Source: an uncultured Gammaproteobacteria bacterium (GTDB lineage: Bacteria > Patescibacteriota > Patescibacteriia > XYB2-FULL-38-15). Taken from it: a DNA stretch of 64,000 bases. The position numbers were made by a program, and so were the translations under genes. Under the pieces are notes generated by a model that ran no database searches, was not told the DNA's origin, and saw only the letters and a list, made by a program, of their open reading frames with translations. The stretch is taken from the NCBI GenBank assembly GCA_965231095.1, contig OZ246416.1, forward strand, positions 741,595 to 805,594. The letters run 5' to 3'. This document shows, piece by piece, positions 736-62,869 of this stretch; within the stretch, counting starts at the first letter, position 1; each line of letters begins with the position of its first letter.

Positions 736-764
736 TTGACAAAAGGCAAAAAATGTGTTATTAT
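736..764 (+). promoter_or_regulatory. sigma70-like promoter, TTGACA-17-TATTAT
   Basis: Exact TTGACA at 736-741, 17-nt spacer, TATTAT at 759-764. It lies upstream of a GC-rich leader and the lipoprotein ORF. Confidence 0.5.
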
Positions 765-928
765 AAACTGTAAAATTAAGGAGTGGAGATTAGGTGAAAT
801 TGGCGCTAAAATTAGCCATTTTCGGGTGATCTTCACAAAGATGTGAACAACCGTTCCGCCAACGTGCGGAACAAGGCCGCCTTCGTCCCGCGATGCGGGA
901 CTTCGGCAAGCCAAGGAGGGCTTGACAA

Positions 929-1555
929 ATGAAGAAGGGAACGACGATGATCGTGGCGCTCGGGTTCGTGTTTCTCGGCGGTTGCTACGAGAGCTACCAG
1001 CGGTACGGTACGGACATGACGCCGCTCGAGACCTGCGTGGTCGCGGTGACCACGAATGCGCTGGACGGCGCGGACGTCACGGTCGACGGTGAGCCGATCG
1101 ACGGCGAGGTGGAACTCGCGGTTGGCTCGACACACACCTTCGCCGCTTCGGCGATCGGATACTTCCCGACAAGCGTGGTTGTGGAAGTGGCCGACGAGTG
1201 TGCACCGGTCGAGATTCAGCTCCTGCCGAACCTGAACGGCTGGTACGACCTCGTGCTTGATGGCCGGAGCTACCGTCGGTTCACGATGCAGATCCGCCAA
1301 GATGAGGGGAGCGAAGACCTCGTCGCCGACATCTGGCGGGAGGGAACTCCTGCGTCGGAACATCCCTACCAGCATTTCGCCGGCGCCGTTACCTACGACA
1401 GGGATGTTCATCTCCTCTCCGAAGATTCTGCGAGGCTGGATCTTTGGGGGGTGTGGACGCCGCCACGTCTCGGTGGGATCGCTCGGATCGGGGGCGGATT
1501 CAACTACCTGTCCACTGATGAGGACGGCGACTGGCTCGCCGAGTCGCGGCCGTAG
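929..1555 (+). CDS. GC-rich lipoprotein (signal peptide with LGGC lipobox), unknown function
   Basis: N-terminus is MKKGTTMIVALGFVFLGGC. Codon usage is strongly G/C-ending, unlike neighbours. Own promoter, SD AAGGAGGG and downstream hairpin terminator. Confidence 0.6.
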   Translation: MKKGTTMIVALGFVFLGGCYESYQRYGTDMTPLETCVVAVTTNALDGADVTVDGEPIDGEVELAVGSTHTFAASAIGYFPTSVVVEVADECAPVEIQLLPNLNGWYDLVLDGRSYRRFTMQIRQDEGSEDLVADIWREGTPASEHPYQHFAGAVTYDRDVHLLSEDSARLDLWGVWTPPRLGGIARIGGGFNYLSTDEDGDWLAESRP

Positions 1556-1572
1556 CATCGGTCGCACTCAAA

Positions 1573-1632
1573 CCGGCATCTGGCAGAACGTTTGCAAACA
1601 AGCAACGTCTCTGTCAGGTGCCGGACTTTTTT
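1573..1632 (+). terminator. intrinsic terminator-like hairpin plus T-run
   Basis: ccggcatctggcag...ctgtcaggtgccgg followed by TTTTTTATT. Confidence 0.4.
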
Positions 1633-1982
1633 ATTAACTGGCCAAAAATTTTGGAGCCGCAGGCGAAAAAAATTTTTCTGGCAGTTAATAACCCCGTTAG
1701 AAGTAAAGGTTATTAAAACAGATAAACAAAATAATTTTAATAAAATATTCTTTGCTCCGCCGAGAGGGTGGATTTACATAAACTTCTAATGGGGTATTTC
1801 CGCCCTCCCCTCACCCCTCCCATCAAGGGAGGGGAATTTAAATTGTGGATGAAATTTTTCTTGACTTAATTTTTATGTTATAATTACTTAATATAAATTA
1901 AATGCGGTACGGAGGAATGTGAATTAACATGCGAGTAAAATTATATGTTCGCATGCATTCGTATATTCGCATCGCATAAATT

Positions 1983-4331
1983 ATGAATACCCTCGCACAC
2001 ATCTGTGACAAATTGGTAAAAATTTGTCTTTCTCTTTTGGTTTTTGTTTTGCCGATTTTCTTTTTGCCGTGGACTTTTGAGGCGTTGGATTTTAATAAAC
2101 AAAATCTGCTTGTTGTTTTGACACTGCTCGCCGGCCTGGCTTGGCTTGGAAAAATGGTGGCTTCAAGGCAAGTTATTTTACGCCGCAGTTTTTTGAATGT
2201 CCTTATTCTGGTGTACGCGGCGATTTATACTCTTTCAACAATTTTTTCTCTGGATAAAATCAGAAGTTTTATCGGCTCTTCCGGTTTGGAAAAAGAGGGG
2301 CTTGTGACAGTTCTCTGTTTCGTAGTTTTGTATTTTGTTATCATCAACAATTTCCGCGACATGAAGGCGGTGAAAAATTTGCTTTATTCATTTCTTTTGG
2401 GCGCGGGACTTGTGACTATCTGGACATTGCTTTCTTTCTTGGGCGTCTTGCCCGCCTTGCTTGTCCCAAGCCAGGCTCTAAATTCAGTGGGTACGCTAAA
2501 CGCCCTGGGAGTTTTTCTTGCCGCCGCGTTTGTTTTGCTTTGCCCCTTGTTTTTGGGCGGTGAGGCGGAAAAGGCGGCTGGCCGTAAAAAAGCCCTGATC
2601 ATGAATATCGTGATGGCAATTTTTGCCGCGTTCATGATTTTTATTTTAGCAACAATTGATAACTGGACAGTTTGGACAATATTTATTCCGGCAGTTGCTT
2701 TGGTTTTAGCTTTTGCGATAATCCGGGCTCATGAAATAAAAAATTTGGGGTGGTTGTCTTTGCCTATGGCGGCGTTTGTCGTGGCGGTTTTATTATTTTT
2801 TATCAATACGCCAATCACTTCGCGGCTTCCGGCGGAAATCATGCCGTCTTTTTCCGCGAGTAGCGGGATTGCAAGGGATACTCTTCGCGAGTCGCCGCTT
2901 TTGGGGTCGGGGCCCAGCACTTTTGTTTTTGATTATGCAAAGTACAAACCGGCCGGCGTTAATGAAACCCAGCTTTGGGATGTAAAATTTGACCGCTCCG
3001 CTTCAAGAGTTTCAACCATGCTTACAACCACCGGGCTTTTCGGAATTATTTCATGGTTGTTCGTGGTTGTTTTTGTCGGCGTTTTGTTTGTTTCAAATTT
3101 AATCAAGGAAAAATCCGGAGTGTTGTGGCTGAATCAGTTGGCGGTTGGGTCAGCGTGGTTTGCCCTGCTCCTTGGAAAATTTCTCTATTCTTCAAATTTG
3201 ACTTTGGAATTTTCTTTTTGGATCTTGACGGCGATTTTGGTGGTAATGACTTCGCATAAATTCTGGGAAATTTCTTTGGGGAGCGCGCCTCGCGTTTCCT
3301 TGATCTTGTCTTTTATTTTGGCAATGGGTTTGATTATCGCGGCTTCATCTTTTTATCTTATTGGCGAACGATACGCGGCTGACGCGAAGTTTGTCCAGGC
3401 GATAAACTCTTTCAATAAAGGAGAAGAATTAAGCAAGGCGACAGAACTTTTGAATCAAGCGGCGTTGTTGAATCAACGCAACGATGTTTATCTCAGAAAT
3501 TTGGCGCAAAGTTTACAGGCGGAAATTAGTCAAGAATTGTCTTCGGAGGCAACAGAGGAAAATGTGAAAAAAATTCAGGATCTGGTGGCGGCGGATATTA
3601 ATGTAGCCAAGCGCGCGACAGAAATTTCTCCAAAAAATTCCGCCAACTGGGCGGCTCTGGCATCAATTTACCAAACGGTTATGCCGATTATTTCCGGAGC
3701 GGACGAGTGGGCGATAGCTTCCTGGCAGAAGGCAATTGAGCTTGAACCGACGAGTCCTTATCTCTATGCCGAGCTGGGAAAAACGTACGCCGCTCTCGCC
3801 GATTTGCTCGCGCCGAATCTCCAATCAAAAGATGATAAAGTTAAAGCCGAGGCCGAAACAAAAATTAAAGAAAATTTAGCCAAAGCCGAAGAGCAACTCA
3901 ACAAGGCGATTGAAACAAAGACTGATTACGCGCCGGCTCATTTTGAACTGGCCATGGTCTATAGCCGGCAGGGGAAGATAGAGGAGGCGATTAAAAAACT
4001 TGAGGCGATCAAAGCTGATCTGCCGAGCGACATTGGCGTGGCGTTTCAGCTCGGACTTCTCTACGCGCAGAATAAAGAATTGAATAAAGCCGTTGCCGAA
4101 CTAGAACGAGCCGTGGAGCTTGCGCCGGCTTTTGCCAACGCTCGTTGGTATTTGGCCGCGATTTACGAAGAGCAGGGCAAGAAAGATTTAGCACTCAGAG
4201 AGCTGGAAGAAATTTTAAAGACCAATCCGGATAACGAAATTGTAAAACAAAAAATTGACGCTCTGAAAAATCCGCCGGCTCCCGGCGCGGCATTGCCGGA
4301 ACCAATTTCTGAAGCAACGCCGGCCGAGTAG
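1983..4331 (+). CDS. polytopic membrane protein with C-terminal TPR repeats (O-antigen ligase/polymerase-like)
   Basis: Roughly 12 hydrophobic segments in the N-terminal 450 aa. The C-terminal about 300 aa are TPR-like repeats (AxxLxxAxxL, YxxLG patterns). Confidence 0.55.
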   Translation: MNTLAHICDKLVKICLSLLVFVLPIFFLPWTFEALDFNKQNLLVVLTLLAGLAWLGKMVASRQVILRRSFLNVLILVYAAIYTLSTIFSLDKIRSFIGSSGLEKEGLVTVLCFVVLYFVIINNFRDMKAVKNLLYSFLLGAGLVTIWTLLSFLGVLPALLVPSQALNSVGTLNALGVFLAAAFVLLCPLFLGGEAEKAAGRKKALIMNIVMAIFAAFMIFILATIDNWTVWTIFIPAVALVLAFAIIRAHEIKNLGWLSLPMAAFVVAVLLFFINTPITSRLPAEIMPSFSASSGIARDTLRESPLLGSGPSTFVFDYAKYKPAGVNETQLWDVKFDRSASRVSTMLTTTGLFGIISWLFVVVFVGVLFVSNLIKEKSGVLWLNQLAVGSAWFALLLGKFLYSSNLTLEFSFWILTAILVVMTSHKFWEISLGSAPRVSLILSFILAMGLIIAASSFYLIGERYAADAKFVQAINSFNKGEELSKATELLNQAALLNQRNDVYLRNLAQSLQAEISQELSSEATEENVKKIQDLVAADINVAKRATEISPKNSANWAALASIYQTVMPIISGADEWAIASWQKAIELEPTSPYLYAELGKTYAALADLLAPNLQSKDDKVKAEAETKIKENLAKAEEQLNKAIETKTDYAPAHFELAMVYSRQGKIEEAIKKLEAIKADLPSDIGVAFQLGLLYAQNKELNKAVAELERAVELAPAFANARWYLAAIYEEQGKKDLALRELEEILKTNPDNEIVKQKIDALKNPPAPGAALPEPISEATPAE

Positions 4332-11819: not shown

Positions 11820-14031
11820 TTTCTTCGGAGTCCTCTTCCTCCGGAGGGTCATCGCTAAAATTATTTTGTTGCGGAGTAGGCACCCCGGCGATTAAAATAT
11901 CGCGCGGTTTCGCGCCGTCTGACGGGCCGATTATTCCTTGTTCTTCCATAAGGTCAAGAAGCCGCGCGGCTCTGGCGTAGCCAACTTTTAACCGGCGCTG
12001 AAGGAGAGAAGCGGAAGCCTTGCCGGCCTGGACAATTACTTCTTTGGCGTCGGAAAGCAACTCGTCGTCAGAGTCATTCCCCAGGTCAAGGCCGGGGACA
12101 GAAATACCAAAGGCCGGCTTTTGCGTAACTTCTTCAAGGTATTCCGGGTCACCTTCATTTTTTAAACAATCAATAACTTTTTTAATTTCATGATCGCGAA
12201 CGAGCGCGCCTTGCAGCCGTTTTGGTTTACCAAGATCCGGGCAGGTGTAAAGCATGTCGCCGCGGCCAAGAAGTTTTTCCGCGCCGGAAGTGTCCAAGAT
12301 TGTTCGCGAATCCATATTGGAAGCCACGGCGAAAGCAATGCGCGTCGTGATATTGGCTTTAATCAAACCGGTGATGATATTAACCGACGGCCGCTGCGTT
12401 GCCAAAATTAAATGAATGCCGACAGCGCGCGCCATTTGTGCCAAACGAATAATCGCGGCCTCAACTTCCGCGGCAGCTACGGCCATCAAGTCAGCCAATT
12501 CATCAATAATTAAAACAAGATACGGCATCTTTTCGCCGGTCTCGCTATTGAAAGCTCCGATGTCGCGTTTGCCGTGTTTGGATAATAATTCAAAGCGGCG
12601 ATCCATTTCTCCGATTACCCATTTTAGGGCGTTTACGGTTTTGACTGTGTCGGTAATAACCGGCGTTAAAAGGTGCGGGATACCATTATAAACCGTAAAT
12701 TCCACACGTTTTGGATCAACCATAATTAAGCGCAAATCATCCGGGCTGTTTTGATAAAGTAAACTGATAATCACGGCGTTTAAGCAGACGCTTTTACCGG
12801 AACCGGTTGAGCCGGCAACTAATAAGTGGGGCATTTTTCCCAAATCAGAAACCCAAACTTTTCCGGAAACATCTTTCCCGAGCGCGACCGTAAGATTTGT
12901 TTTTCTTTGTTTAAATTCTTGCGCCCGCAAAATTTCTTTCAGATTAACCGCCGCAACTTTTTGGTTTGGCACTTCAATGCCAACTAAAGATTTTCCCGGA
13001 ATCGGTGCTTCAATTCTGATCGGATGGGCGGCGAGAGCCAAAGACAAATCATTATGAAGATTTGTAATTTTGGAAAGCTTTACGCCGTCGGCCGGTTTTA
13101 AAGTATATTGCGTCACCGTCGGCCCAACGGAAACGTCGCTCATCTCCACCATAATACCAAAATTCTCCAAAGTTTTTTGGATAATATTCATCTGGGTTTT
13201 TATGTCGCCGCTTGTCGGTTTTTCCGATTGGTCGTCCAGGAGATCAAGAGGCAAATCAATTTTTTTCCGCTCGGTCTTAACAACGATCGGGCTCCCTCCC
13301 GGCAAGAGTCCCGCCTCCGCTTCGCTTGGCACACTTTTATTTTCAAAAGAGGGAGTTGTTGCGGCTGGTGTTTCCGGTAATTCTTTGACGGGTTCATTCC
13401 CTTCTTCAGCGGGAGCTTCTTCTTGTGCTTTTCCGCTAAATTTCATACCCAAAAAGAAGAGCTTAATATTTTGATAAATTTTTTTCCAGAAGTTTCCTTT
13501 TTCAGCGATAGTGTGGAGAGAAGTATTAAAAGTTAAAAGGATTGAAGAAATAAAAATGGCAAAAATAATTAGAATAGTGGCGACCTGTCCCAAAGAAATC
13601 AAAAGAGGATAAGAAAGAATTAATCCCAAATAACCACCGCCGCTCCGAAGGCTGGCAAAAGAAAACGGGTCATCATAGGAAAATCCAAGATGGAGGAGGC
13701 TTTCGATGGAGAGAATTAAAAAGAAAAGTCCGACGTAATTTGACGCGCCAAGTTCGTATTTCTCTCCGTTTAAAATAATATATCCCAGAGCGAGAAAAAC
13801 GATTGGAATCACAAAGCGGCCCAAACCGAAAAAGGAAGACAGAGTGTTATCCAAGTGCTCTCCGGCGCCGCCGGCCAAATTGAAAAGACTTAAAATGCTG
13901 ATTCCGGCCAGGGCGAAAAGAAAAATGATTACAATTCCCCGTTTTGTGTCGGGATTGATTTTTCCGTTACTTCTCCGGCCATTTTTTCTTCCCTCATTTT
14001 TTTCTTCTTTTGAGTATTTTATTTTTGGCAT
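11812..14031 (-). CDS. ftsK: DNA translocase FtsK
   Basis: N-terminal TM segments, linker, motor domain with VAGSTGSGKS Walker A, and C-terminal gamma-domain-like region. Confidence 0.9.
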   Translation of the reverse strand: MPKIKYSKEEKNEGRKNGRRSNGKINPDTKRGIVIIFLFALAGISILSLFNLAGGAGEHLDNTLSSFFGLGRFVIPIVFLALGYIILNGEKYELGASNYVGLFFLILSIESLLHLGFSYDDPFSFASLRSGGGYLGLILSYPLLISLGQVATILIIFAIFISSILLTFNTSLHTIAEKGNFWKKIYQNIKLFFLGMKFSGKAQEEAPAEEGNEPVKELPETPAATTPSFENKSVPSEAEAGLLPGGSPIVVKTERKKIDLPLDLLDDQSEKPTSGDIKTQMNIIQKTLENFGIMVEMSDVSVGPTVTQYTLKPADGVKLSKITNLHNDLSLALAAHPIRIEAPIPGKSLVGIEVPNQKVAAVNLKEILRAQEFKQRKTNLTVALGKDVSGKVWVSDLGKMPHLLVAGSTGSGKSVCLNAVIISLLYQNSPDDLRLIMVDPKRVEFTVYNGIPHLLTPVITDTVKTVNALKWVIGEMDRRFELLSKHGKRDIGAFNSETGEKMPYLVLIIDELADLMAVAAAEVEAAIIRLAQMARAVGIHLILATQRPSVNIITGLIKANITTRIAFAVASNMDSRTILDTSGAEKLLGRGDMLYTCPDLGKPKRLQGALVRDHEIKKVIDCLKNEGDPEYLEEVTQKPAFGISVPGLDLGNDSDDELLSDAKEVIVQAGKASASLLQRRLKVGYARAARLLDLMEEQGIIGPSDGAKPRDILIAGVPTPQQNNFSDDPPEEEDSEENV

Positions 14032-14148
14032 ACCCCCTAAATAAATGATAATTTGTTCTTAAATTATAGTATTATTTAGGTAAAAAGTAAATCCCCACGC
14101 CGATATGTTGGTGTGGGGATAAATCCCGATCGTCAAGGTCTTGACAAG

Positions 14149-14183
14149 GGGAAAAATTTCCTTTAAAGTAACAAAAAATAGCA
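14149..14183 (+). promoter_or_regulatory. sigma70-like promoter, TTGACA-17-TAAAGT
   Basis: ggtcTTGACAaggggaaaaatttccttTAAAGT, in a 430-bp gap between two minus-strand genes. Confidence 0.35.
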
Positions 14184-14189
14184 GAGAAA

Positions 14190-14340
14190 GAACTGGAGGC
14201 AGTGAGCTTGGCTTAGTCTCGCAAAACTGCGGGACGCCAGACTCGGGATTGGTTAAAGTGAAAAATTGAGTGTGCACCCGATTTTTACTATTCCAATCCT
14301 TCCCGACCCCCATTTCTCTTTCTGCTATTTTTCGTTTAAT
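14190..14340 (+). ncRNA. candidate small structured RNA (5-prime and 3-prime ends pair; 6S-like long imperfect hairpin)
   Basis: 5-prime aatagcagagaaag pairs with 3-prime ctctttctgctatt followed by TTTTTCGTTT. Internal complementary segments ctcgggattgg/ccaatccttcccg. Confidence 0.3.
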
Positions 14341-14459
14341 GTTAGCATTTTTTAAGTACTAACATCTAATCATACCATAAAATTATAATTTTGTCAATAC
14401 TCATTGACAAAACCGCCCGGGAAGGCGGTTTTTGGTTTGTTTTAGATTTAATTTTTCTG

Positions 14460-16076
14460 TTATTGATTTTTTACTCTATAAATTGTCACTTCGCTATTTT
14501 GATAAACATTTTCCAGGTATTTATCGTCATTTGGATCAAAGTTGGCCGCGGATTTTTCTTCGGGCCCGAAAAAGAGGTAACTAATATTATGGAGTTTTAA
14601 AAAAGCAAACCTTTCTTCGGTGCGGAAGCTATGGAAAAATTTTTCCAGCCACCCGGCTTTTGTTGCCTGGTCGGCGGTTAGACTCCACTGGCCGGCATAA
14701 ACCGGCCGTAAAGAAATAGCCGGGATGAGATTGCCATTCGCCATGGAGGCCAAGACAACGTTTTCTTCGATTGATTTATTTTTTAACCAGGTCATTGCTT
14801 CGTTTTTATTTTTTGATAAATAGGCTGAATAAATTTGGGGAGGAGCGGAATAGTAAATCAAGTCGTCAATAATTAAGAAATAATTAGAAAGGCCAAAAAT
14901 AATAAAAACAAACCATAGTAAAATTTTTCGTTTATCAAAGTTTTTCTTAAAAATAGCGCTAGTGTCCATTAAATAAAATAAACCAATCGCCGCGAGTAGC
15001 GCCATTATAATTTGTAGCCCAGCCGTCATCCGGCGTTGAAAATTAACCGGAGCATAGATTAAAGTTATTTGGGCGAAAAACCAAGCGAGAAGAAAAAGTG
15101 ATTTTTCGGTTTTTTCTTTTTTAAGAAGAATATAAGCGCCAAAGCCGGCTGAAAGAAAAAGAAAGCCGTAACTTAATAATGTGATGCCAAGAGCGGGGGT
15201 GAGGCAGATGTTTTGCAGAGCAAACTGCTGGCGGGTCCAAAAATTTTTCAAAGTCCAGAGATGATAGATAATTGCCGGAAGGGAAAGCATCAATAAAATA
15301 AAATAGTGCTTCAAAACGTCCCAGCGGATTTTTTTATTTTTCAGACATAAAAATAGAAAGTATAATGTTAAAATTCCGGCGATGGTGGGCGCGTTGTATG
15401 GATGAAATTGAAAAAGAAAAAGTGTGGTAAGCCCGGCACTAAAACTATAATTTTTTTTATTTTTTTCAATTGCAAGAAGCGTCAAAAATAAAGTCGCGAT
15501 AAAAAGCGTGAGTGAAGCGATAAAATGCGGAGAATTATAGATTGTGGAAAAAGTAAAAGCTTCGGGAACCCAGAGGTCCATGGGTAAGGTTGAAGGGGCG
15601 GTAGAAAATAAATTAGAGATAAGCCAAACTACCCATCCGAAGCCCGAAGCAAAAATTAAAAAAAGAAAAGTTATTTTTCTTTTTTTCTCTTCTGTGAAAA
15701 AGTGGGAAATAAAAATATAGGAAACAGCCAAAAAAATTGGGATTAAAAATATTCTCGCGAGTTGGTAGACAACGGGCGCCGAGAGGGAAAATGATTTGGC
15801 GAAAAGACCGACGCCGAGCCAAAATGGATCAAAAATAAATCGTCCTTCGTCCTCGGAAGTATATAAATTTTTAAAAAGAAAATGCCCTTCTTTTGTTTGT
15901 TCAATCCAGGAGTAATAGACAGGAGTATCTATGTGGTCAACAAATTGTAAGCCGAGAAAAACGCTATCGTCGGGGGTAGAAAAAAATCCGAACAATATCG
16001 GGAGAGAGACGACGACAATTAACAGTAAACCCACTAATCCGACAAATTTCCATTCCTTAAAATTAATTTCGGGCAT
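14460..16076 (-). CDS. GT-C fold membrane glycosyltransferase (ArnT/PMT-like)
   Basis: More than 12 TM helices. It is the last gene of the operon with the GT2 and second GT-C genes. Confidence 0.5.
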   Translation of the reverse strand: MPEINFKEWKFVGLVGLLLIVVVSLPILFGFFSTPDDSVFLGLQFVDHIDTPVYYSWIEQTKEGHFLFKNLYTSEDEGRFIFDPFWLGVGLFAKSFSLSAPVVYQLARIFLIPIFLAVSYIFISHFFTEEKKRKITFLFLIFASGFGWVVWLISNLFSTAPSTLPMDLWVPEAFTFSTIYNSPHFIASLTLFIATLFLTLLAIEKNKKNYSFSAGLTTLFLFQFHPYNAPTIAGILTLYFLFLCLKNKKIRWDVLKHYFILLMLSLPAIIYHLWTLKNFWTRQQFALQNICLTPALGITLLSYGFLFLSAGFGAYILLKKEKTEKSLFLLAWFFAQITLIYAPVNFQRRMTAGLQIIMALLAAIGLFYLMDTSAIFKKNFDKRKILLWFVFIIFGLSNYFLIIDDLIYYSAPPQIYSAYLSKNKNEAMTWLKNKSIEENVVLASMANGNLIPAISLRPVYAGQWSLTADQATKAGWLEKFFHSFRTEERFAFLKLHNISYLFFGPEEKSAANFDPNDDKYLENVYQNSEVTIYRVKNQ

Positions 16077-16782
16077 GGGATTTTTTTAGGCGCCAAATTT
16101 CTTTTAAATATCCAAGAGAAACTTTTAGAAAACTCACTCGGCTCCTACGGCCGATTTTTTTGTGTTCAGTCCAAATGACGGGGATTTCTTTCACGCGATA
16201 ATTTTGTTTTTCCGCCAACACTATCATTTCCGTGTCAAAAAACCATTCATTATTTTTTATTTGCGGCAGAATATTTTTAATGACTTTATAATTCACGGCT
16301 TTAAAACCGCAGGGTGCGTCTTTTATTTTTGAGCGCAGAGCCAGACGTAAAATAAAGCGGTATGCCCGAGAAATAAATTTTCGGAGTAATGATCTTTTAA
16401 CTTTAGAATCTTTGTGAAAACGCGCGCCGGCGGCGAGGTCGTAATTTTCCCGGCCAATCGCAGAAATTAAATCGGGCAAAGTAGAAAGATCGGTCGCTAA
16501 ATCCGCGTCCATAAAAACGTAAATGTCGGAGTTAACACTTTCCCAGGCGGCGCGGATGGCGCGGCCTTTTCCTTTTTGAGGAATATGTAAATATTTTATT
16601 CCCCCCAAACTTTTTTCCAGATCTTGTCCGATTTTTCCGGTTTGGTCAATGGAATTATTGTCGGCAATAATAATTTGCCAATCGTCAAAGATATTTTTTT
16701 TTAAGAAATCATAAAGTTTTATGGCGTTCTCCGCTAAAATTGATTCTTCGTTATAAACTGGAATGGCAATTAAAATTCTCAT
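16063..16782 (-). CDS. family 2 glycosyltransferase (polyprenyl-phosphate sugar synthase, DPM1/GtrB-like)
   Basis: IPVYNEE, ADNNSID, DAD motifs of GT2. Confidence 0.85.
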   Translation of the reverse strand: MRILIAIPVYNEESILAENAIKLYDFLKKNIFDDWQIIIADNNSIDQTGKIGQDLEKSLGGIKYLHIPQKGKGRAIRAAWESVNSDIYVFMDADLATDLSTLPDLISAIGRENYDLAAGARFHKDSKVKRSLLRKFISRAYRFILRLALRSKIKDAPCGFKAVNYKVIKNILPQIKNNEWFFDTEMIVLAEKQNYRVKEIPVIWTEHKKIGRRSRVSFLKVSLGYLKEIWRLKKSHARN

Positions 16783-18425
16783 TATGGTATTAGTTTATAA
16801 ACTTTTCCCTCGTCATCTTTATAAACCATTGTAAAATGCCCGTCGCTTTTTAAATTATTTTCCAAGGCAACGTGATCTTTATCCACAAAAACATATTCGG
16901 AATGAAAATCATTTTTTACAATTTCGGAAATGTTCGGGCGTCGGCCGGTCGTAATATCAACCCAAACTTTATGCAGGTCTTTATCATAATCATACATAAA
17001 GGTTGGGTCAAGGCCGGCAATATAATAATTATGAGTATTATAATAGAAAAGCGCGGGAAAATCATCCCAGTCATTATGGAAAATAATTGCTCCTTCTGGG
17101 GTATTATTTTTTAACCATTCAGCCACGCCGCGGTATTTATAAATTGATCCACCAGAAAGATAAAGTTGTTTTATTGACCAAATATTTCTTCCAGCCGTAA
17201 AAGGTGTCATAAACAAAATATAAATAATAGCAAGACTCGAAAGAATTTTTCTTTTCTGCCGCCAAGCATTAATCGCAGGCAGATATTTTTTTATTAAAGA
17301 AAGGGGCTGGCTCAAAATAAAAGCGGAGGCAAGAGTAGCAAAGGGAATAAAGTATTCAACATTACGGCGGGAGCGTAAAGTTAGGGCGAGAAAAAAAAGT
17401 GCAAGAAAGGTAAGGGTAAGGGTCTTAACTTTCATTTCAGGATTTATTACAGAAGATTTTTCATGACTCGTAAAATTTTTAAGAAAATTTACAAAAACTA
17501 CGGCAAAAGAAAGAATCAGCAAAATAAAAATAAAAGAAGAGTTGGCGATAAGGTCGCCCAAACCGTACGGATACCACTCGGCTCCTACGCCGATTTTATT
17601 TTGGTAATTAATGACGGCGATTTTGATAATTTGCTGCCAATAAAAAGATAAATTTTTTGGAAAAAAGGGATTAATAATGAGACCGGCTAAAAGTCCTCCG
17701 AAACAGGCCGTGAAAAGTTTGATGTTGTCTTTTAAAAAAATATTCTTAAATAAATTTACAATTTCCAATTTCCAATTTTCAATCAATTCAATAATTTTGA
17801 CTTTTGACTTTTGACTTTTGACTTTCTGGCTATGGAAGAAAAGCGTTTTAATAAGTGAATCGCTAAAAATATAAAAAATTGTCAGTACTAAAATTAATGG
17901 CCAACCGCCGTAAGTCCAGACATAAATAAATGAAAGAACAAAAAGCGGCCAAAGTTTTCGGTGGAAAATAAAATAAAGTCCAAAGAGTAAAATGATGAGC
18001 GAAAGCGAAGAGGCTTTGGCCAGGTTTATCCTGAAAATAAGCGGGCTTGAAACGAGGAGAATCAGGGAATAAAAAATTGCGCCTTTGACGCGGAATTTTT
18101 TAAGAAACCAGTAAAAAGTTAAAATTAGGGCCGCGGCGGAAAGGGCGGTAAAAAGTTTTATCCCAACTAATGGATCAAAAAAAGTGACGAAAGGAACGAG
18201 GGTGGCGTGGTAGAGAAAATGGTGGTCGGCGAAATTATCTTTTAAAACGGTAAATTGCAGCCAAGGAAATTCCGTAGTGACTCCTTGGTCGCGAATTAAG
18301 ACTGCCATCTTCGCGTGGTAAAAAGAATCGGGGTCGGGGAAAGTCGGAGAAATTTGAAAGTACGAAAAAAGAGAAAACGCGACGATGAAAAGCAAAAGAT
18401 ATTTTAACAATTCTGTTTTTTTCAT
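16782..18425 (-). CDS. GT-C fold membrane glycosyltransferase with extracytoplasmic C-terminal domain
   Basis: Polytopic N-terminal region and a soluble C-terminal roughly 120 aa. Contains an in-frame TTTTGAC x4 repeat. Confidence 0.5.
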   Translation of the reverse strand: MKKTELLKYLLLFIVAFSLFSYFQISPTFPDPDSFYHAKMAVLIRDQGVTTEFPWLQFTVLKDNFADHHFLYHATLVPFVTFFDPLVGIKLFTALSAAALILTFYWFLKKFRVKGAIFYSLILLVSSPLIFRINLAKASSLSLIILLFGLYFIFHRKLWPLFVLSFIYVWTYGGWPLILVLTIFYIFSDSLIKTLFFHSQKVKSQKSKVKIIELIENWKLEIVNLFKNIFLKDNIKLFTACFGGLLAGLIINPFFPKNLSFYWQQIIKIAVINYQNKIGVGAEWYPYGLGDLIANSSFIFILLILSFAVVFVNFLKNFTSHEKSSVINPEMKVKTLTLTFLALFFLALTLRSRRNVEYFIPFATLASAFILSQPLSLIKKYLPAINAWRQKRKILSSLAIIYILFMTPFTAGRNIWSIKQLYLSGGSIYKYRGVAEWLKNNTPEGAIIFHNDWDDFPALFYYNTHNYYIAGLDPTFMYDYDKDLHKVWVDITTGRRPNISEIVKNDFHSEYVFVDKDHVALENNLKSDGHFTMVYKDDEGKVYKLIP

Positions 18426-43332: not shown

Positions 43333-43341
43333 TGGTGCTTG

Positions 43342-43361: not shown

Positions 43362-43375
43362 TTGGCCCAGCCCTC

Positions 43376-43420
43376 GGACGCTTGGACCCTGACGCGAGAA
43401 ATCGTGTTGGGGTCTTTTTT
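43376..43420 (+). terminator. terminator-like hairpin plus T-run
   Basis: ggaccc-tgacgcgagaaatcgtgtt-ggggtc plus TTTTTTTATT. Confidence 0.4.
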
Positions 43421-43753: not shown

Positions 43754-43872
43754 GAACGCGAACGGCAACCGTCTCGATCTCGGCAACTTCGACGAGAGCG
43801 GCCTCAACTGCGACAACTACAACTGGGACGACAACCGGAACGACAACTTGGGCTGCTTCGCTCTGATGGTGT
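43754..43872 (+). repeat. DGR template repeat (TR)
   Basis: Encodes ...NANGNRLDLGNFDESGLNCDNYNWDDNRNDNLGCFAL with about 10 AAC codons. Followed by hairpin aagaaggcggg-tttgt-cccgccttctt. Confidence 0.75.
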
Positions 43873-43879
43873 GTAGAAA

Positions 43880-43910
43880 AAAGAAGGCGGGTTTGTCCCG
43901 CCTTCTTTTA
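43880..43910. terminator. bidirectional hairpin after TR and at avd 3-prime end
   Basis: aagaaggcgggtttgtcccgccttctt. Confidence 0.4.
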
Positions 43911-44318: not shown

Positions 44319-44414
44319 TGCGAGGGGTCCGCCAAAGTTTTGCGGCGCAAAATTTAGGCGGATGACGCGGCAATCCCACTGTCCGGAGATTGCTTCGCTG
44401 CGGCTCGCAATGAC
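44314..44414. repeat. GTCATTGCGAGG...CTCGCAATGAC palindromic element, copy B (between avd start and RT start)
   Basis: Same termini as copy A; the internal hairpin differs (ccgccaaagttttgcggcgcaaaatttaggcgg). Confidence 0.6.
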
Positions 44415-44428
44415 AATTATTGATAATT

Positions 44429-45892: not shown

Positions 45893-46414
45893 ATGGTAAC
45901 TTATAAAGAACAACGCGTCGGAGTTTTTATTGACGTGCAAAACATGTATTATTCCGCGAAAAACCTTTACAACGCAAAGGTTAATTTTGGAAATATTTTA
46001 GAAACGGCGGTTGGCAACAGAAAATTAATCCGCGCCATCGCTTATGTCGTGAAAACTAAAACCGGCGAGGAAAAAGTTTTTTTTGAAGCGTTGGAAAAAT
46101 TAGGTCTGGAAACTCGGGAAAAAGAATTGATGGTCTACGACGGCGCGAAAAAAGCAGATTGGGATGTGGGAATTTGTATTGACTCTATTGCCCTGGCGGA
46201 AAGACTGGACGTGATCGTTATTGTTTCCGGTGACGGAGATTTTATTCCGCTCGTGCAATATTTAAAGATGAACAAGGGTTGCCGGGTGGAATCAATTGCT
46301 TTTCGCGAAACGACATCCAGCAAGCTCGTAGAAACAGTTGACAATTTTGTAGATTTGAGCCATGATAAAAGACGCTATTTGATTAGCGGGAGGACGAAGA
46401 GAACGATCATTTAA
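45893..46414 (+). CDS. NYN domain (LabA-like, PIN-fold) protein
   Basis: VGVFIDVQNMYYS...VIVIVSGDGDFIPLV is typical of the NYN/DUF88 family. Confidence 0.75.
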   Translation: MVTYKEQRVGVFIDVQNMYYSAKNLYNAKVNFGNILETAVGNRKLIRAIAYVVKTKTGEEKVFFEALEKLGLETREKELMVYDGAKKADWDVGICIDSIALAERLDVIVIVSGDGDFIPLVQYLKMNKGCRVESIAFRETTSSKLVETVDNFVDLSHDKRRYLISGRTKRTII

Positions 46415-56740: not shown

Positions 56741-56769
56741 TTGACAAAAAATTGGCCGTCAGTTAGAAT
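56741..56769 (+). promoter_or_regulatory. sigma70-like promoter, TTGACA-17-TAGAAT
   Basis: TTGACAaaaaattggccgtcagtTAGAAT. Confidence 0.45.
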
Positions 56770-56999
56770 GGGTTCATATGGAAGTTGGGAAGTTAAGAAT
56801 TTTGATTAGCATTATTATTTCTGACCCAGGGCGGTCTAGGCGTTTTTAATCTTTGTAAATTAAAAATGAACTGGCCGCCAAACGCGGTCAGTTTTCTTTT
56901 TAAAAGAGGTTTGTCTCTCCAAAATAGTCGCGAAAAATTTCGCCGCTGTTTTGGGGAGGGAAGGGCATGGGTGCAAGAGGCACCGGGAGGAGGAGAAAT

Positions 57000-57561
57000 G
57001 GGAAAAGAAGATGAGGTGAGGGTTTGCCGGGTGCATGATGGCGTGATGATGGTTTTCCGTCCGGACGGGTTTCACTGTTTGAAGTGCCAGGAGCTGGCCG
57101 CCAAGGAGAGCGTGATTGTGGCCGCTTGCCCGCACTGCTACGAGTCGCTACTCGTGCCCAGGCCCTTGATCGAGGGGTTACCGTCGGTCTGCCTCCAGTG
57201 GCAGAACGCCGACGAGTTCAAGGCTACGATTGCGGGCCTTCTCTACGTTTCGTCGAGACGGGACAGCGTAGAGTTGATTTCCGTGCCGCCGATCGAGAGG
57301 GGTGAAGTGCTCCGCCTTTCCTGCCCGCGCTGCATGAAGGCTCTGCCCCTGGCCTCTGATCCGGAATGTCGGATCTGCGGAGCAAGGGTGGTGGTGATCG
57401 ACGATCGGTACCCCCACGGAAGGGACGGGAGGAGTAAGCGCTGGGTCTGCAGCCGTCGCGGTTGCTCCGGGCACCATTTCGGCGAGGAAGGGCCGAGTCT
57501 CGATGCCCAGGTGGTGGCCATGATGGCGCAGAGAAGACTTAGCGCCGACGAAACGATGTAG
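57000..57561 (+). CDS. GC-rich Cys-rich (multiple CxxC) zinc-ribbon protein, 187 aa
   Basis: SD GGGAGGAGGAG then ATG at 57000. CxxC pairs CLKC, CPHC, CPRC, CRIC, CSRRGC. A 230-nt leader contains a hairpin-plus-T-run element (actggccgc-caaa-cgcggtcagt tttt). Confidence 0.5.
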
Positions 57562-57600
57562 GAGGGATGACCTAAAGCACAAAAAAGTGAAATAGGTCCA

Positions 57601-57655
57601 GGGCGAATCTGTAAAGTCACGTCATGCGTGATGGAGCAGGTTCGCCCGCTTTTTT
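57601..57655 (+). terminator. intrinsic terminator
   Basis: gggcgaatctg...caggttcgccc plus TTTTTTTATTT. Confidence 0.45.
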
Positions 57656-57666
57656 TATTTAACCCT

Positions 57667-57695
57667 TGACAAGATTTTTATATATGTTAAAATAA
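57667..57695 (+). promoter_or_regulatory. promoter TTGACA-16/17-TAAAAT
   Basis: cTTGACAagatttttatatatgtTAAAATaacc. Confidence 0.4.
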
Positions 57696-57699
57696 CCAG

Positions 57700-57836
57700 T
57701 TGGATTATTGGACTAAAAAACCACCGGAAACCTGCAGACACGACAAGCACGGGGGTTAATCCTGCGTTCGCCTGGCCTTGGCTCGGCAAAACGCGGGAAT
57801 AACTCTCTTGTCTGCAGATTCCCGGTGGCTTTTGTT
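57700..57836 (+). ncRNA. candidate roughly 135-nt sRNA with closing 5-prime/3-prime stem and intrinsic terminator
   Basis: 5-prime ccaccggaaacctgcagaca pairs with 3-prime tgtctgcagattcccggtgg plus CTTTTGTTTTT. It is convergent with vanW, so it is not its leader. Confidence 0.35.
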
Positions 57837-57837
57837 T

Positions 57838-59838
57838 TTAAAAAGTAAGAGGAAGTAGAGCCGGGTCAGGAATTCCGTCCGGGCTCGTGGGGATTGTCGG
57901 CGTTTCGGGGGGAGTCGGAGTCGGTTCTTTTCCCACTAAACAAACCGCGCTCCAGGGAACGTAGTGGCTTGACCAGGTTTCGGTTTTTATTTCTCCATCT
58001 TTATAAGTAATGGTGCGGTCAAATTCCGCGTCCGCGCCGGTGTGCGCCCGTTCCGTGCATTTTTTAACTCCCGGAGCAAGATCGGCGGTTTCAATAATTT
58101 TTGTCGGACCGGGACTGACAAAGTTGAAAACTCTTGGCGTGGTCATTTCCACTTTGCGCCCGTCGGGCGTGCCCCAGAGTTCAAAAGTTAATTCATCTCC
58201 GTCAATTCTTGTTTGGAGTAGCAGGTAAGCAGGTGTGTCATTTACAAATTTTAAATCAGGACGAGGGCTATAAATGGTCGCATCCATTCCGGCCGGTTCA
58301 TAATAAACTACGCGATAGGAATGCGGCCGGCGTTCGGTGATGGGCAATCCGGCATCAAGCGCTACGCGGAAAGCAGTTGTCCCAATTTGGCAGAGGCCCC
58401 CGCCGTACTCGGGGATAGTTTTATCGCCTTTGATAACAAGCTCCGGAAGATAGCCAGTAGAAGCATCAATCTCCCCCAAGGTTTTAACTAAAGAAAATTC
58501 TTCGCCCGGAGCGATTAAAACACCGTTTAATTTTGTCGCCCCGACTTTGATGTTATGGCGGCGATTTGTCGGGCTGCCGGAGAAATCAGATGTGCCCGTC
58601 CCGACCAATTCTTGAATTCCCAAATTGTTGATAGTGCCGATGGGAACTTGCGGCGCGGTAATTGTCACAATCATCTGAATAATTTCTTCTTTGTCCGGTA
58701 CGGGATTTTTTGGGCAAGCGGCTTGAATTTTTGTTTCATCAAAATTTTTTACATAGTTGTTTAAAAGATCATAGCTCGCTTCAATATTTAATTCTTTTCC
58801 GCCCTGATGCAATTGGAATTCTTCAACCAAGCCGTTTTCTATTGTGAATTTCGCGTTTTGCGGGAGAACGTCAATTTCGGCAGCCAACTTTTTTAAATAT
58901 TCCTCAACTTTTTCTTTATTCAACCCGACGGTTAGCCCATCTTTTGTTTGTTGGAATTCAAAGTTATCTCTTAGCTCAGCTTGATTTATAACCCAGGTTT
59001 TTTTTGTTTCGCCCAAAGCCAGAAAACACAGCCCGGCTAATTTTTCGGCGCGACCCGCGGCGAGGGCGGTTTCAGCTTTTTTTATTTTTGCTTTTTCCGC
59101 AGTCAGTTCAAGTTTGGCGGGCGAGTCAATCAATTTAGAGATTTTAAGAAAAGCATCATTGATAGCAAAAGAATAATTAAAAGTGCGGCCGTCTTGCTCA
59201 TCGCTCACCACGACTTGTGTGCCATTTCCGTTTTTAACATAATTTATTTTTGCGTCTTGCGGTTCTTTTTCCAAATAGCCAAAACTTTCTTTCAAAACTT
59301 TTATCATTTCATCTTCATTGATTTGGTATTTCAGGGGAATACTTTTTCCAAGCAGTAAAAATTTTACCTGGTTTCCGAGATTGGCCAGAAAATTTTTATT
59401 GCGGCCGAGGGCGAAAGCTTCTTTTACGGTTTGTTCGTTCTCTAAAGAAAAAACCGTTCGGGAAAGATCAGGATCATTGGCGGCCGTGACAAGAGGAGCA
59501 AGCGAGGCGGTTTTATTTTGATAAACAAAAGTGACGCCTTCTTCATTAAATTTTTTTGTCGCTTCCCGAAGCGCCACCATTGCCTCGTCTTTTGTTTTTC
59601 CACCGAGTTTTAAATCATTGATTTTTATGCCGGGATATATTTTATCAGAAAATATTTTTTCAAAGCCAAACGCCGTGCCGGCCGGCAGGACGACGAGCAA
59701 TAAAAAAATGGCGATAATAATTTTCAGCCATTTTTTAACGACAAATTTTTTCGGAAGTTCCGCGGTTATTTTCTGTGAAACTGGGTCTGGAGATTTGTTA
59801 AGTTCCTTTTTGCCCATCTTTGTTTTGTAAAATTTCAT
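57838..59838 (-). CDS. VanW family protein with N-terminal TM and peptidoglycan-binding-like domains
   Basis: VanW core ...EYGGGLCQIGTTAFRVALDAGLPITERRPHSY...; Pro/Thr-rich C-terminal tail. Confidence 0.85.
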   Translation of the reverse strand: MKFYKTKMGKKELNKSPDPVSQKITAELPKKFVVKKWLKIIIAIFLLLVVLPAGTAFGFEKIFSDKIYPGIKINDLKLGGKTKDEAMVALREATKKFNEEGVTFVYQNKTASLAPLVTAANDPDLSRTVFSLENEQTVKEAFALGRNKNFLANLGNQVKFLLLGKSIPLKYQINEDEMIKVLKESFGYLEKEPQDAKINYVKNGNGTQVVVSDEQDGRTFNYSFAINDAFLKISKLIDSPAKLELTAEKAKIKKAETALAAGRAEKLAGLCFLALGETKKTWVINQAELRDNFEFQQTKDGLTVGLNKEKVEEYLKKLAAEIDVLPQNAKFTIENGLVEEFQLHQGGKELNIEASYDLLNNYVKNFDETKIQAACPKNPVPDKEEIIQMIVTITAPQVPIGTINNLGIQELVGTGTSDFSGSPTNRRHNIKVGATKLNGVLIAPGEEFSLVKTLGEIDASTGYLPELVIKGDKTIPEYGGGLCQIGTTAFRVALDAGLPITERRPHSYRVVYYEPAGMDATIYSPRPDLKFVNDTPAYLLLQTRIDGDELTFELWGTPDGRKVEMTTPRVFNFVSPGPTKIIETADLAPGVKKCTERAHTGADAEFDRTITYKDGEIKTETWSSHYVPWSAVCLVGKEPTPTPPETPTIPTSPDGIPDPALLPLTF

Positions 59839-60034
59839 TCAAAAGAGTTTTGGCCAGTTTTGCCCTTTCTTCTTCATCGGATTGGTTGGTGGAAATTCCG
59901 AGCCGGACGGCCGAGCCTTCTTTCGCGTCTTCTGGCAGGTCAAGTTTTGGCCAGCGAAGTTCTTGCCCATCTTCAGTTTTTATGATGGCGAAATCTTCTT
60001 CAAATCGATCAATTGCCGCTTTTATAAATTTCAT
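59798..60034 (-). CDS. DUF3006-like small protein
   Basis: MKFIKAAIDRFEEDFAIIKTEDGQEL... Confidence 0.5.
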   Translation of the reverse strand: MKFIKAAIDRFEEDFAIIKTEDGQELRWPKLDLPEDAKEGSAVRLGISTNQSDEEERAKLAKTLLNEILQNKDGQKGT

Positions 60035-62332: not shown

Positions 62333-62360
62333 CAAAATAACAAATAAAAAATTCCTTTAA

Positions 62361-62388
62361 AAGGGATTTTTTTGTCATTCCCGTAAAA
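62361..62388. repeat. short GTCATTCCCG-loop-CGGGAA palindrome
   Basis: ttgtcattcccgtaaaaacgggaaccc. Confidence 0.4.
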
Positions 62389-62450
62389 ACGGGAACCCAG
62401 TAATTTGAATCGGATCACCAATAGAGTTGGGAATGGCATTTAGAAATGGC

Positions 62451-62479
62451 TTGACAGAAATGGAGCGGCATGATATAAA
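62451..62479 (+). promoter_or_regulatory. sigma70-like promoter, TTGACA-17-TATAAA
   Basis: TTGACAgaaatggagcggcatgaTATAAAT. Confidence 0.45.
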
Positions 62480-62518
62480 TTAGAGTCTTAGCGGCGACAG
62501 AGTTAAGGAGGATTGAAG

Positions 62519-62869
62519 ATGGCGAGGACGAAGAAGCCGAACCAAACCGAAGAAGTCGAAATCAATCTGGGAAGGTTGTTACACGAGCAGCTGTGTACCG
62601 GGGATCACGTCGAGATGTGTTTTTGGGACAGGCGCGACTCTTGGGTGATTGGTGGGCCGAATGCTAGTCGCCCCGAGGGCAACGTTTACTGGATGATGGC
62701 CCGCAGAGTCCTCGAGATCGCAAAGCAGAGGGGGCTGACCGCTGCCGATGTGGTCGCGTTTGTCAATGCGTTACGAGAGCGGGTGGATACAGATGGCTAT
62801 TACGGCGCTTCGTACCGTTGCTACCGCCGTCTGTGCCGCCGTTTTCTTAAGTCGGCAAACCGGCGCTAG
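62519..62869 (+). CDS. GC-rich small hypothetical protein (116 aa)
   Basis: SD AAGGAGG then ATG at 62519. Followed by terminator ccgacaag...cttgtcgg plus TTTTTTTATTTT (62872-62916). Confidence 0.45.
   Translation: MARTKKPNQTEEVEINLGRLLHEQLCTGDHVEMCFWDRRDSWVIGGPNASRPEGNVYWMMARRVLEIAKQRGLTAADVVAFVNALRERVDTDGYYGASYRCYRRLCRRFLKSANRR

Follow-up and report, generated by a model that had tools for sequence, protein, structure and literature searches.

The window considered here is a stretch of 64,000 nucleotides (nt) of contig OZ246416.1 (assembly GCA_965231095.1, positions 741,595 to 805,594 of the forward strand). It belongs to a Falkowbacteria-like Patescibacterium, a small bacterium of groundwater and a member of the candidate phyla radiation (CPR); orthologues of its UvrA, 81–90% identical, are found in Patescibacteria metagenome-assembled genomes (MAGs), two of them named Candidatus Falkowbacteria. 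About eleven autonomous, mostly monocistronic and GC-rich transcription units are placed singly among core genes such as uvrABC and those for ribosomal proteins, YchF, H+-PPase and TsaD/E, and they account for about 11.6% of the window. They contain two different lipoproteins, a cyclic nucleotide monophosphate (cNMP)-binding protein, a Zn-ribbon protein, small ORFans, the variable protein of a diversity-generating retroelement (DGR), and at least two non-coding or mini-ORF RNAs. "Core" denotes here the other open reading frames (ORFs) of the window, and L-numbers denote loci or contigs of related genomes. The GC content of the whole window is 43.4%, and it peaks at 0.53–0.64 (in 500-nt windows) at 1.0–1.5, 26.5–28.5, 30.5–31.5, 42.5–43.5, 57.0–57.5 and 62.5–63.0 kb. 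The initial annotation had described the coding regions of such cassettes as GC-rich at the third codon position in contrast to their neighbours, and this is borne out by the GC profile and by the GC content at third positions (GC3), which is 0.64–0.89 in the nine unit ORFs (c929, c20898, c26380, c27299, c30535, c31054, c42625, c57000 and c62519) and 0.28–0.53 in about 50 other ORFs of the window, with zero overlap.

Codon preference is reversed between the units and the core: the usage of AAG is 0.79 in the units vs. 0.15 in the core, that of GAG 0.52 vs. 0.21, that of AAC 0.69 vs. 0.29, and that of CTC plus CTG 0.72 vs. 0.23. In the nine unit ORFs GC3 is usually higher than GC1, and GC1 higher than GC2, as is the signature of coding sequences (CDSs), and the encoded proteins are enriched four-fold in Cys. 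Two unit proteins were modelled with AlphaFold2 (AF2), which gave pLDDT values of 85.6 (c929) and 88.9, and the families show conservation of residues; the unit proteins are real. They do not constitute a family of cassettes as had been proposed, since all-against-all BLASTP reveals no paralogy among the nine proteins (similarity is at the level of the signal peptide only) and no shared repeat, not even a common imperfect inverted repeat, is found at the ends of the units. Neither a recombinase nor a tRNA nor a direct repeat flanking the units is found in the window. Searches of the units against PHROGs and NCBIfam give zero matches, and PADLOC gives only a weak match to PycC in c26380, caused by its cNMP-binding domain. 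Pfam matches among the unit proteins are limited to cNMP_binding in c26380 and weak Zn-ribbon matches in c57000; together with a PEGA domain and a barrel in the model of c929, these are the outcome of the homology and structure search that had been suggested for the cassette proteins, which otherwise have no match in Pfam. Scans of IMG/VR viral contigs for the c42625 and c929 families reveal no relatives, and a search of Rfam with the whole window and with 27.9–29.3 kb, both at the gathering threshold and at E up to 1, gives no match within the units. An adenine-specific depletion of the DGR type was considered as a source of the GC-richness and rejected, the sense strands not being depleted of A relative to T beyond the pattern of the core.

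An exact TTGACA is present at 736, 20844, 26317, 30956, 42324, 56741 and 62451, the seven coordinates at which it had been claimed, and is followed after 17–18 nt by a hexamer with one to three mismatches from TATAAT. The same type of promoter heads at least six transcription units outside this set, at 50077, 57666, 60526(−), 54505(−), 41319(−) and 14397(−), and therefore represents the general sigma-70 consensus of the organism rather than a mark of the units. The promoters at 736 and 42324, described initially as near-identical over 32 nt, share 26 of the 32 positions by count and are thus only similar. Downstream of every unit there is a hairpin followed by a T-run, as had been noticed; the terminators of c929 and c57000 were read from the sequence.

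The units also differ from the core in the Shine-Dalgarno (SD) site. A strong SD, which had been attributed to each cassette, precedes eight of the nine unit ORFs and is lacking in one, with a pairing energy of about −11 to −12 kcal/mol against CACCUCCUUU, the 3′ end of the genome's own 16S rRNA lying outside the window. As compared with about −11 kcal/mol in these eight ORFs, the median of the core is −0.6 kcal/mol (Mann–Whitney p=6e-6). Because the core start sites had been assigned mechanically in this test, it was redone without annotation, by scanning for GGAGG, AGGAG or GAGGT located 4–10 nt upstream of the start codon of an ORF with 40 codons or more. This combination occurs at seven unit starts vs. 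about three genuine core starts. In seven related loci with independent gene calls, a strong SD is found in 8 of 14 GC-rich genes vs. 9 of 90 others (Fisher p=1.7e-4). Strong SD sites are thus almost confined to the GC-rich units, and the core lacks them. The core starts with GGAGG-type sites are those of 16782–18425(−), 45893–46414 and 59798–60034(−), and the core genes, including those for ribosomal proteins, are essentially SD-less with an A-rich sequence ahead of the start codon.

Bacteroidota are an SD-poor lineage in which a few genes retain an SD. A part of Parcubacteria has been reported to lack the anti-SD motif (PMC9297842), and the SD-less core of the present window fits this reported loss or weak use of SD/anti-SD pairing. 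The likeness to these lineages is in the core, which is essentially without SD. Unlike in them, a compositionally deviant minority of genes bears perfect and conserved SD sites here. In the literature on GC-rich gene classes or SD usage in CPR bacteria, only the anti-SD loss in Parcubacteria turned up, and no description was found of a split between SD-led and SD-less genes within one genome.

Whether the same cassettes occur at the same loci in related genomes had been put forward as a check, and the outcome is affirmative: at least ten independent assemblies have orthologous units, likewise GC-rich, in the same slots, with some slots empty and the DGR target elsewhere. In L002, L003, L004 and L006, orthologues of the cNMP-binding protein and the lipoprotein are encoded between uvrB and the SPFH/Band-7 gene, and a small gene lies between uvrA and uvrC. 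Orthologues of c31054 occur as well. GC3 of the unit orthologues in these four genomes is 0.55–0.87 vs. 0.34–0.50 in their neighbours. Proteins of the units are 26–81% identical to their orthologues vs. 74–94% for those of the flanking core, for example 84–91% for UvrB beside c26380, c20898, c27299 and c31054, and 74–88% for the TPR protein beside c929. At four-fold sites, on the other hand, identity between orthologues is 0.39–0.57 in the units and 0.40–0.65 in the core, and because of this similarity the units must be as old as the divergence of these genomes. The more distant L007 is empty of the whole set of units that flanks the uvr genes, relatives hold other GC-rich single genes in other slots, and c929 and c57000 are present in every relative examined. 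Most units were thus already in place in the ancestor of the subclade with UvrA at least 85% identical, and have been inherited vertically since then; their regulatory RNA and DNA have been kept under strong purifying selection, and their proteins have diverged several times faster than those of the core. Recent acquisition was rejected for c929, c27299, c57000, c31054 and c20898, which have GC-rich orthologues in the same slots and a synonymous divergence like that of the core. The proposal of horizontally acquired or mobile cassettes is therefore retained in part: the units are discrete, some slots are empty and the DGR target has been relocated, but the same-slot orthologues, the core-like synonymous divergence and the lack of flanking recombinases and repeats do not fit it.

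In the c929 unit (736–1640, +) the promoter (736–764), the structured leader (771–928) and the long-stem terminator (around 1570–1640) are nearly invariant across seven genomes while the protein is 50–81% identical. Its CDS (929–1555; GC3 0.78) follows the SD AAGGAGG and encodes a lipoprotein with the lipobox LGGC, conserved as a lipoprotein in its family. The AF2 model consists of a PEGA/transthyretin-like sandwich and an avidin/lipocalin-like eight-stranded barrel. A search of 5.8e9 proteins yields 17 homologues, and full-length clusters with both domains number only three in a set of 1.84e9 representatives. In six further genomes the orthologue is flanked, as here, by the 860-aa protein and the TPR protein; GC3 of the seven orthologues is 0.72–0.82, vs. 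0.41–0.51 for the TPR gene, although synonymous sites are heavily diverged. The leader contains two helices ending at the SD, with 31 pairs, of which 96% of the cells are paired and ten show compensatory changes; none of 500 shuffles matches this covariation, and register-shifted controls collapse. Hairpins of the form CCCTCTCCC-loop-GGGAGAGGG ("GGGAGAGGG" repeats) are seen at the edges of several GC-rich units, at around 1860–1930 of the window and in L059, L061 and L068, and may be REP-like elements or terminators.

Several units are clustered around the uvr genes. The c20898 unit (20844–21206, +), with the promoter at 20844, the SD GGGAGGG, a CDS of 87 aa (20898–21161; GC3 0.65) and a terminator at 21174–21206, has kept its promoter and SD in six genomes between uvrA and uvrC, with proteins 26–46% identical. 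The c26380 unit (26317–27198, +; promoter 26317, terminator 27166–27198) has an SD and a CDS (26380–27156; GC3 0.66) encoding a cNMP-binding domain (Pfam cNMP_binding, E=2e-12) and a coiled-coil tail, and the orthologues at the same position of L002, L003 and L006 share only 26–29% identity with it, beside the well-conserved UvrB. On the opposite strand, the c27299 unit (27227–28110, −; SD AAGGAGG, terminator 27278–27227) encodes a Cys-rich lipoprotein (27299–28057; GC3 0.64) from an extended −10 promoter at around 28075–28110, TTTTAATTTTATT..TTGnTAAAAT, which is conserved in five genomes. Orthologues in the same slot of L002, L003, L004 and L006 are 45–56% identical, with GC3 of 0.55–0.76. 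Farther downstream, the c31054 unit (30956–31367, +; promoter 30956, terminator 31341–31367) encodes 84 aa (31054–31308, with an alternative start at 31003; GC3 0.80), and its orthologues are 48–54% identical, among them those of L002 (53%; GC3 0.77) and L003 (48%; GC3 0.87). Its divergent neighbour c30535 (unit 30481–30900, −; SD AAGGAGG; terminator 30531–30481) encodes a low-complexity protein of 110 aa (30535–30867) rich in Arg and Glu; here GC is 0.63 and GC3 0.64, but GC1 exceeds GC3, and no orthologue is found in relatives, so that its status as a gene is uncertain.

At the other end of the window, the c62519 unit (62451–62916, +; promoter 62451, SD AAGGAGG, terminator 62875–62916) encodes 116 aa (62519–62869, with an alternative start at 62513; GC3 0.68–0.69) and is absent from the slot between the genes for TsaE and T2SSE in L063 and L064. 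Unannotated stretches of raised GC are seen at this slot in L063 (15273–15623, 352 nt) and between uvrB and uvrA in L007 (8820–10000, 1.18 kb), and they may be other non-coding units. The c57000 unit (56741–57657, +) comprises the promoter at 56741, a leader of 225 nt, the SD GGGAGGAGGAG, a CDS for a CxxC/Zn-ribbon protein (56998–57561) and a terminator at around 57597–57657. GC3 is 0.76 from the start at 56998 (0.70–0.76 over the starts 56866/56998). Only six homologues are found among 5.8e9 proteins, and the gene is syntenic between those for H+-PPase and VanW in L063 (GC3 0.83) and L064 (GC3 0.68), where the protein is 51–69% identical.

The leader of c57000 contains a terminator hairpin with a U-tract (56870–56905) and a mutually exclusive upstream pairing, which would be that of an antiterminator. 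It is nearly invariant in three genomes, in which RNAalifold predicts a pairing between GGCGGTC and the 5′ arm of the terminator; covariation is minimal, with one compensatory pair in three sequences. The leader shares the terminator hairpin, the U-tract and the alternative pairing with known transcription-attenuation leaders and riboswitches, and the leader of c929 resembles these in its two covarying helices that end at the SD; unlike known riboswitches, the unit leaders match no Rfam family even at E up to 1. Long leaders with a terminator-like hairpin had been pointed out for both c57000 and c27299; this is correct for the former, whereas the supposed leader of the latter is a separate unit with its own promoter at 28875 and terminator at 28175–28124. 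This GC-rich unit of about 715 nt (28124–28875, −; TTGACA at 28875–28870) is apparently non-coding, as judged from its sequence: an SD-like GGAAGGAGG is followed by an ORF of two codons, and in comparison with L002 and L003, to which it is 71–76% identical, every ORF is broken by 1-nt indels. Its predicted fold has a minimum free energy of −292 kcal/mol (z=−7.4), and RNAalifold on the three sequences gives 158 pairs, 25 of them with compensatory changes. The unit is absent or replaced in L004 and L006. A single metagenome scan with an invariant 23-mer for further copies retrieved one contig, of the L003 lineage and identical in sequence, so the power of the covariation stays at three sequences.

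Another small unit is located between uvrA and uvrB (23864–24160, +), with TTGACT at 23864–23869, a −10 hexamer at around 23887–23892, the SD GAAGGAGGTGG at 23941–23951, an ORF of 18 codons (23960–24016) and a conserved 3′ part. The initial annotation had listed this region, as 23920–24180, among the cassettes. It is indeed a plus-strand unit with a promoter, an SD and an ORF, but a small and variable mini-ORF or RNA unit: its GC is 0.53, its 5′ and 3′ parts are kept in L002, L003 and L004 while the ORF varies in sequence and length (16–21 aa), and L005 and L006 lack it, uvrA and uvrB being directly adjacent there. Three GC-rich units have a very short ORF near their 5′ end that starts with ATG-AAY (56868–56876, 28760–28752(−) and 23960–23965). 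The first two, which belong to the c57000 leader and the 715-nt RNA, encode MN-stop, and the third, that of the mini-ORF unit, encodes MNHEF... The shared start may be a coincidence or a common feature of leader peptides.

The window also contains other small candidate transcription units. An sRNA-like unit at 57666–57840 (+) has the promoter TTGACA-N16-TAAAAT, a long hairpin of about 125 nt (−60.7 kcal/mol) and a T-run end; the hairpin is nearly invariant in L063 and L064, with the compensatory changes ACCACCGG/CCGGTGGC vs. ACCGCCGG/CTGGCGGT, and has no match in Rfam. A conserved ORF of 39 aa at 28931–29050 (−), MGQNSAAKARTKQALKNTKKGKELRKHTKRLKGCSCCCC, has its own TTGAC promoter and terminator and occurs in five genomes with third-position changes; the peptide is basic with a C-terminal Cys cluster, and the ORF is not GC-rich. 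An intergenic stretch of about 430 nt (14031–14460, −), with a consensus promoter at 14397(−) and an 84-codon "ORF" (14059–14313), is conserved in L006 (19485–19694) and may be an unannotated RNA or a gene for a small protein.

The DGR target is encoded by the c42625 unit (42324–43421, +), which starts at the promoter at 42324 and includes a leader of 300 nt with a palindromic element (42438–42518), the CDS of the variable protein (42625–43332) with the variable repeat (VR) at 43210–43330, and a terminator at 43385–43421. The hairpin GAGCCTAG-GACA-CTAGGCTC, located 12 nt 3′ of the stop codon and kept in L068, is the predicted target-recognition hairpin. The remainder of the DGR (43749–45457) consists of the template repeat (TR, 43749–43872), a bAvd-like gene (43908–44318, −; E=6e-9 and 36.8 bits, under the Pfam cut-off of 40 bits) and the gene for the reverse transcriptase (RT, 44420–45457; RVT_1, E=3e-25), and except for the TR it is not GC-rich. 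VR and TR differ at TR adenines, adenine content being 0.25 in TR and 0.12 in VR, which changes AAC to TGC, TAC or GAC, and GAC to GGC or GTC. The window contains no second VR that matches the TR, and no A-specific differences are found outside the one present. The protein is assigned the C-type lectin/FGE-like fold with the VR displayed, and its family has at least 147 members, all from Patescibacteria/CPR, with no Pfam model. GC3 of the target is 0.89 vs. 0.45 for the RT in the window, and 0.92 vs. 0.40 in L071, where the full module (target, TR, Avd and RT) has the same architecture between other flanking genes. In L068 the unit, including its promoter and leader, lies between the genes for the small and large subunits of NiFe-hydrogenase, with no RT within 10 kb; the target is about 90% identical to that of the window in nucleotides and 83% in protein, and homology to the window begins exactly at the −35 box and stops about 60 nt past the stop codon. 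A homologue of 51% identity lies between secY and map in L069.

In the window the VR, taken as 43210–43332, is one codon shorter than the TR (43749–43875), whereas in L068 VR and TR are of the same length; the DGR may not have refreshed the VR of the window recently. The palindromic element, GTCATTGCGAG...GCGGCAATC...GATTGCTTCG...CTCGCAATGAC, occurs twice in the window (42438–42518 and 44314–44414), and the two copies bracket the DGR target and the TR, one in the leader of the target and the other just upstream of the RT. In relatives it also lies beside GC-rich units (L068 9812–9900, L071 7811, L059 around 2600–2740 and L065 around 40–70), and may be a dispersed repeat or a DGR-associated RNA element. 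As compared with the DGR variable proteins TvpA (2y3c), Mtd (1yu0) and TaqVP (5vf4) and their systems, c42625 is without a Pfam match and represents a CPR-specific family, it has no signal peptide, its VR is one codon short, the Avd-like gene is on the opposite strand, and the target has a GC3 of 0.89–0.92 while its own RT has 0.40–0.45.

A tyrosine recombinase gene upstream of this unit (41326–42243) is conserved in L004 and L006 as a core xerC/D-like gene. In these two genomes the xerD-like gene is directly beside the orthologue of 31438–31884, and the segment between 31380 and 41119 is therefore an integrated mobile element. It is an AT-rich segment of about 9.7 kb (GC 0.30–0.40), bordered by 40-nt direct repeats (31380–31419 and 41080–41119) that are 98% identical; it encodes a large serine recombinase (39534–41150), abuts tRNA-His and tRNA-Arg, and its genes are SD-less like the core. 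A LOOT RNA (Rfam RF03000) is located within it at 36199–36322 (−), with 85.5 bits vs. a gathering score of 46.4.

The history of the GC excess was followed by polarised counts of substitutions from G or C to A or T (strong to weak, S>W), the reverse (W>S), and between G and C (S>S); four-taxon 3:1 parsimony counts are confounded by saturation. In the c929 family, Fitch counts combined with simulation assign 72% of the S/W changes to S>W, where stationarity would give 59% and pure decay from a root GC3 of 1.0 would give 85%. On the terminal branches of the DGR target in the window and L068, three-taxon counts give 20 S>W and no W>S changes. In this target, however, 33 G–C interchanges stand against 24 S>W changes, and the resulting S>W/S>S ratio of 0.73 is 4–7 times lower than that of the core (3.1–5.3). 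In c929, c57000 and c27299 the depletion of S>W at four-fold sites is weak or absent, with no difference from the core in S>W/S>S. There is a net excess of S>W in every unit tested, and the equilibrium GC3 obtained from the rates is 0.51–0.74, below the current 0.62–0.90. The GC excess seems to be eroding, more slowly than a core-like pressure predicts, at least in the DGR target.

With moderate confidence, we regard the units as accessory transcription units of non-core ancestry that resemble morons, being autonomous, GC-rich and SD-led, and that have mostly been inherited vertically within one Falkowbacteria subclade. Within this subclade they are occasionally gained, lost and relocated. Their composition, and their SD-led initiation in a genome with an SD-less core, would point to a gene pool other than that of the core, plausibly a higher-GC and SD-using one such as other CPR lineages or their elements. 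The units would have entered as promoter-to-terminator modules, and their GC excess would now be decaying slowly. A strong SD would be needed because GC-rich structured mRNAs presumably cannot use the AU-rich, SD-independent initiation of the core. Such a self-contained expression module could be placed in any intergenic position, with no need of the adjacent operons and no effect on them. Unlike the phage morons with which they are compared below, the units are GC-richer than their host; acquired DNA is usually AT-richer than the host.

A moron is usually a single coding region with its own promoter and terminator, located between genes that are adjacent in related genomes and deviant in composition (PMC4378225). 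As in the morons of lambdoid and Mu-like phages, the units have their own promoter and terminator, are monocistronic and are unlike their neighbours in composition. Insertion between genes that are adjacent in relatives is seen for c62519, the mini-ORF unit, the 715-nt unit and, as compared with L007, the units flanking the uvr genes. On the other hand, the units reside in a bacterial chromosome among housekeeping genes and have no PHROG or viral-contig matches, most of them are old and syntenic across the subclade rather than sporadic, and some are non-coding. They resemble genomic islets and horizontally transferred ORFan genes in their atypical composition, lineage-restricted families and variable presence among relatives, but they are single-gene units without integrase, tRNA or repeat borders, mostly conserved in position and with a core-like synonymous divergence. 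The only classical island in the window, at 31.4–41.1 kb, is AT-rich and SD-less. Integron gene cassettes were rejected as a description, the units being dispersed, with their own promoters and with no shared inverted repeat at their ends.

Several observations weigh against this moron-like ancestry. No donor is found, the 17 homologues of c929 and the six of c57000 all being from the same clade, and the family of the DGR target is confined to CPR; phage, defence, NCBIfam and viral-contig searches with the units are negative. Since c929 and c57000 occur in every relative examined, their insertion is not observed. The promoters of the units are of the host's own type and AT-rich. Pure amelioration requires a root GC3 of about 1.0 for the c929 family to stand at 0.77 today, and the rarity of S>W relative to S>S in the DGR target is not that of the core. 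In the DGR module, whose parts relocate together, the target is GC-rich and the RT is not, which argues for a gene-specific cause rather than a shared foreign origin. A different explanation, which we consider possible though less probable, is that the units are an endogenous and maintained expression class (a "two-dialect genome"), in which selection on a native regulon, and not past transfer, would account for the GC-rich body, the GC-ending codons, the strong SD and the structured leaders. The mRNAs of this class would be treated apart from those of the SD-less, AU-rich core; they might, for instance, rely on SD-dependent translation or on particular tRNAs, or resist AU-specific RNases. The persistence of the high GC3 in the seven c929 orthologues despite heavy synonymous divergence, the occurrence of a co-mobile DGR module with only its target GC-rich in three genomes, the low S>W/S>S ratio of this target, and the strong purifying selection on SD sites, leaders and promoters, with native-type promoters and no outside donor found, are consistent with such a class. 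It is opposed by the net S>W excess in every unit tested, by the core-like S>W/S>S of c929, c57000 and c27299 at four-fold sites, by the variable occupancy of the slots, and by the failure to find a shared regulatory motif beyond the general promoter consensus. A version in which the class is controlled separately and covers fast-evolving surface and sensing proteins, including the DGR target, is somewhat more doubtful still; its members might be translated only when the anti-SD is available, survive AU-specific RNases, or be limited by the tRNAs for GC-ending codons.

Biased gene conversion is classically recognised by high GC combined with rapid evolution of the protein, and the conserved flanks around hyperdivergent bodies would suit recombination hot spots at which the leader and terminator serve as homology arms for allelic exchange of the body. 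We nevertheless consider GC-biased conversion improbable, because the flux is from S to W and not the reverse, the bodies and the neighbouring core are equally diverged at synonymous sites with no sign of older or exchanged alleles, and a shift of GC3 from 0.45 to 0.9 is, to our knowledge, far above what is reported for bacterial biased conversion. DGRs in other bacteria often diversify surface lipoproteins, and one unit being the DGR variable protein and two others surface lipoproteins, the units could be conceived as further targets or partners of one dispersed, DGR-centred system. This functional linkage, raised in the initial annotation, is largely refuted and very unlikely: the unit proteins are heterogeneous and unrelated, a single VR in the window matches the TR, A-specific differences are confined to the VR, and the orthologues of the units hold their slots while the DGR sits at other loci. 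Only the contrast in composition speaks for the splicing of GC-rich fragments of another organism into a CPR contig during assembly or binning. An independent Logan assembly contains the c929 unit with identical sequence and surroundings, and the same contexts recur in MAGs of many unrelated projects, which excludes the chimeric assembly that had been raised as a caveat; the promoters and terminators also fit the junctions exactly, and a chimera is refuted, with next to no probability left to it.

The uncultured CPR bacteria, with their tiny genomes, are believed to live attached to hosts. The units represent a flexible compartment of one Falkowbacteria subclade, in an otherwise AT-biased and SD-less genome, that is recognisable from the sequence alone and that holds the surface lipoproteins and the DGR variable protein, the likeliest mediators of host contact. 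It also includes or adjoins conserved RNAs that are as yet unclassified, namely, a structured RNA of about 715 nt, an attenuator-type leader, a covarying 5′ untranslated region and a hairpin RNA of about 125 nt. Since these are old, vertically inherited genes with deviant GC, composition screens for recent horizontal transfer or contamination would flag them wrongly. If the contrast holds true genome-wide, it would provide a simple means to pick host-interaction and accessory genes in such MAGs, and a natural test case for the coexistence of SD-dependent and SD-independent initiation in one cell.

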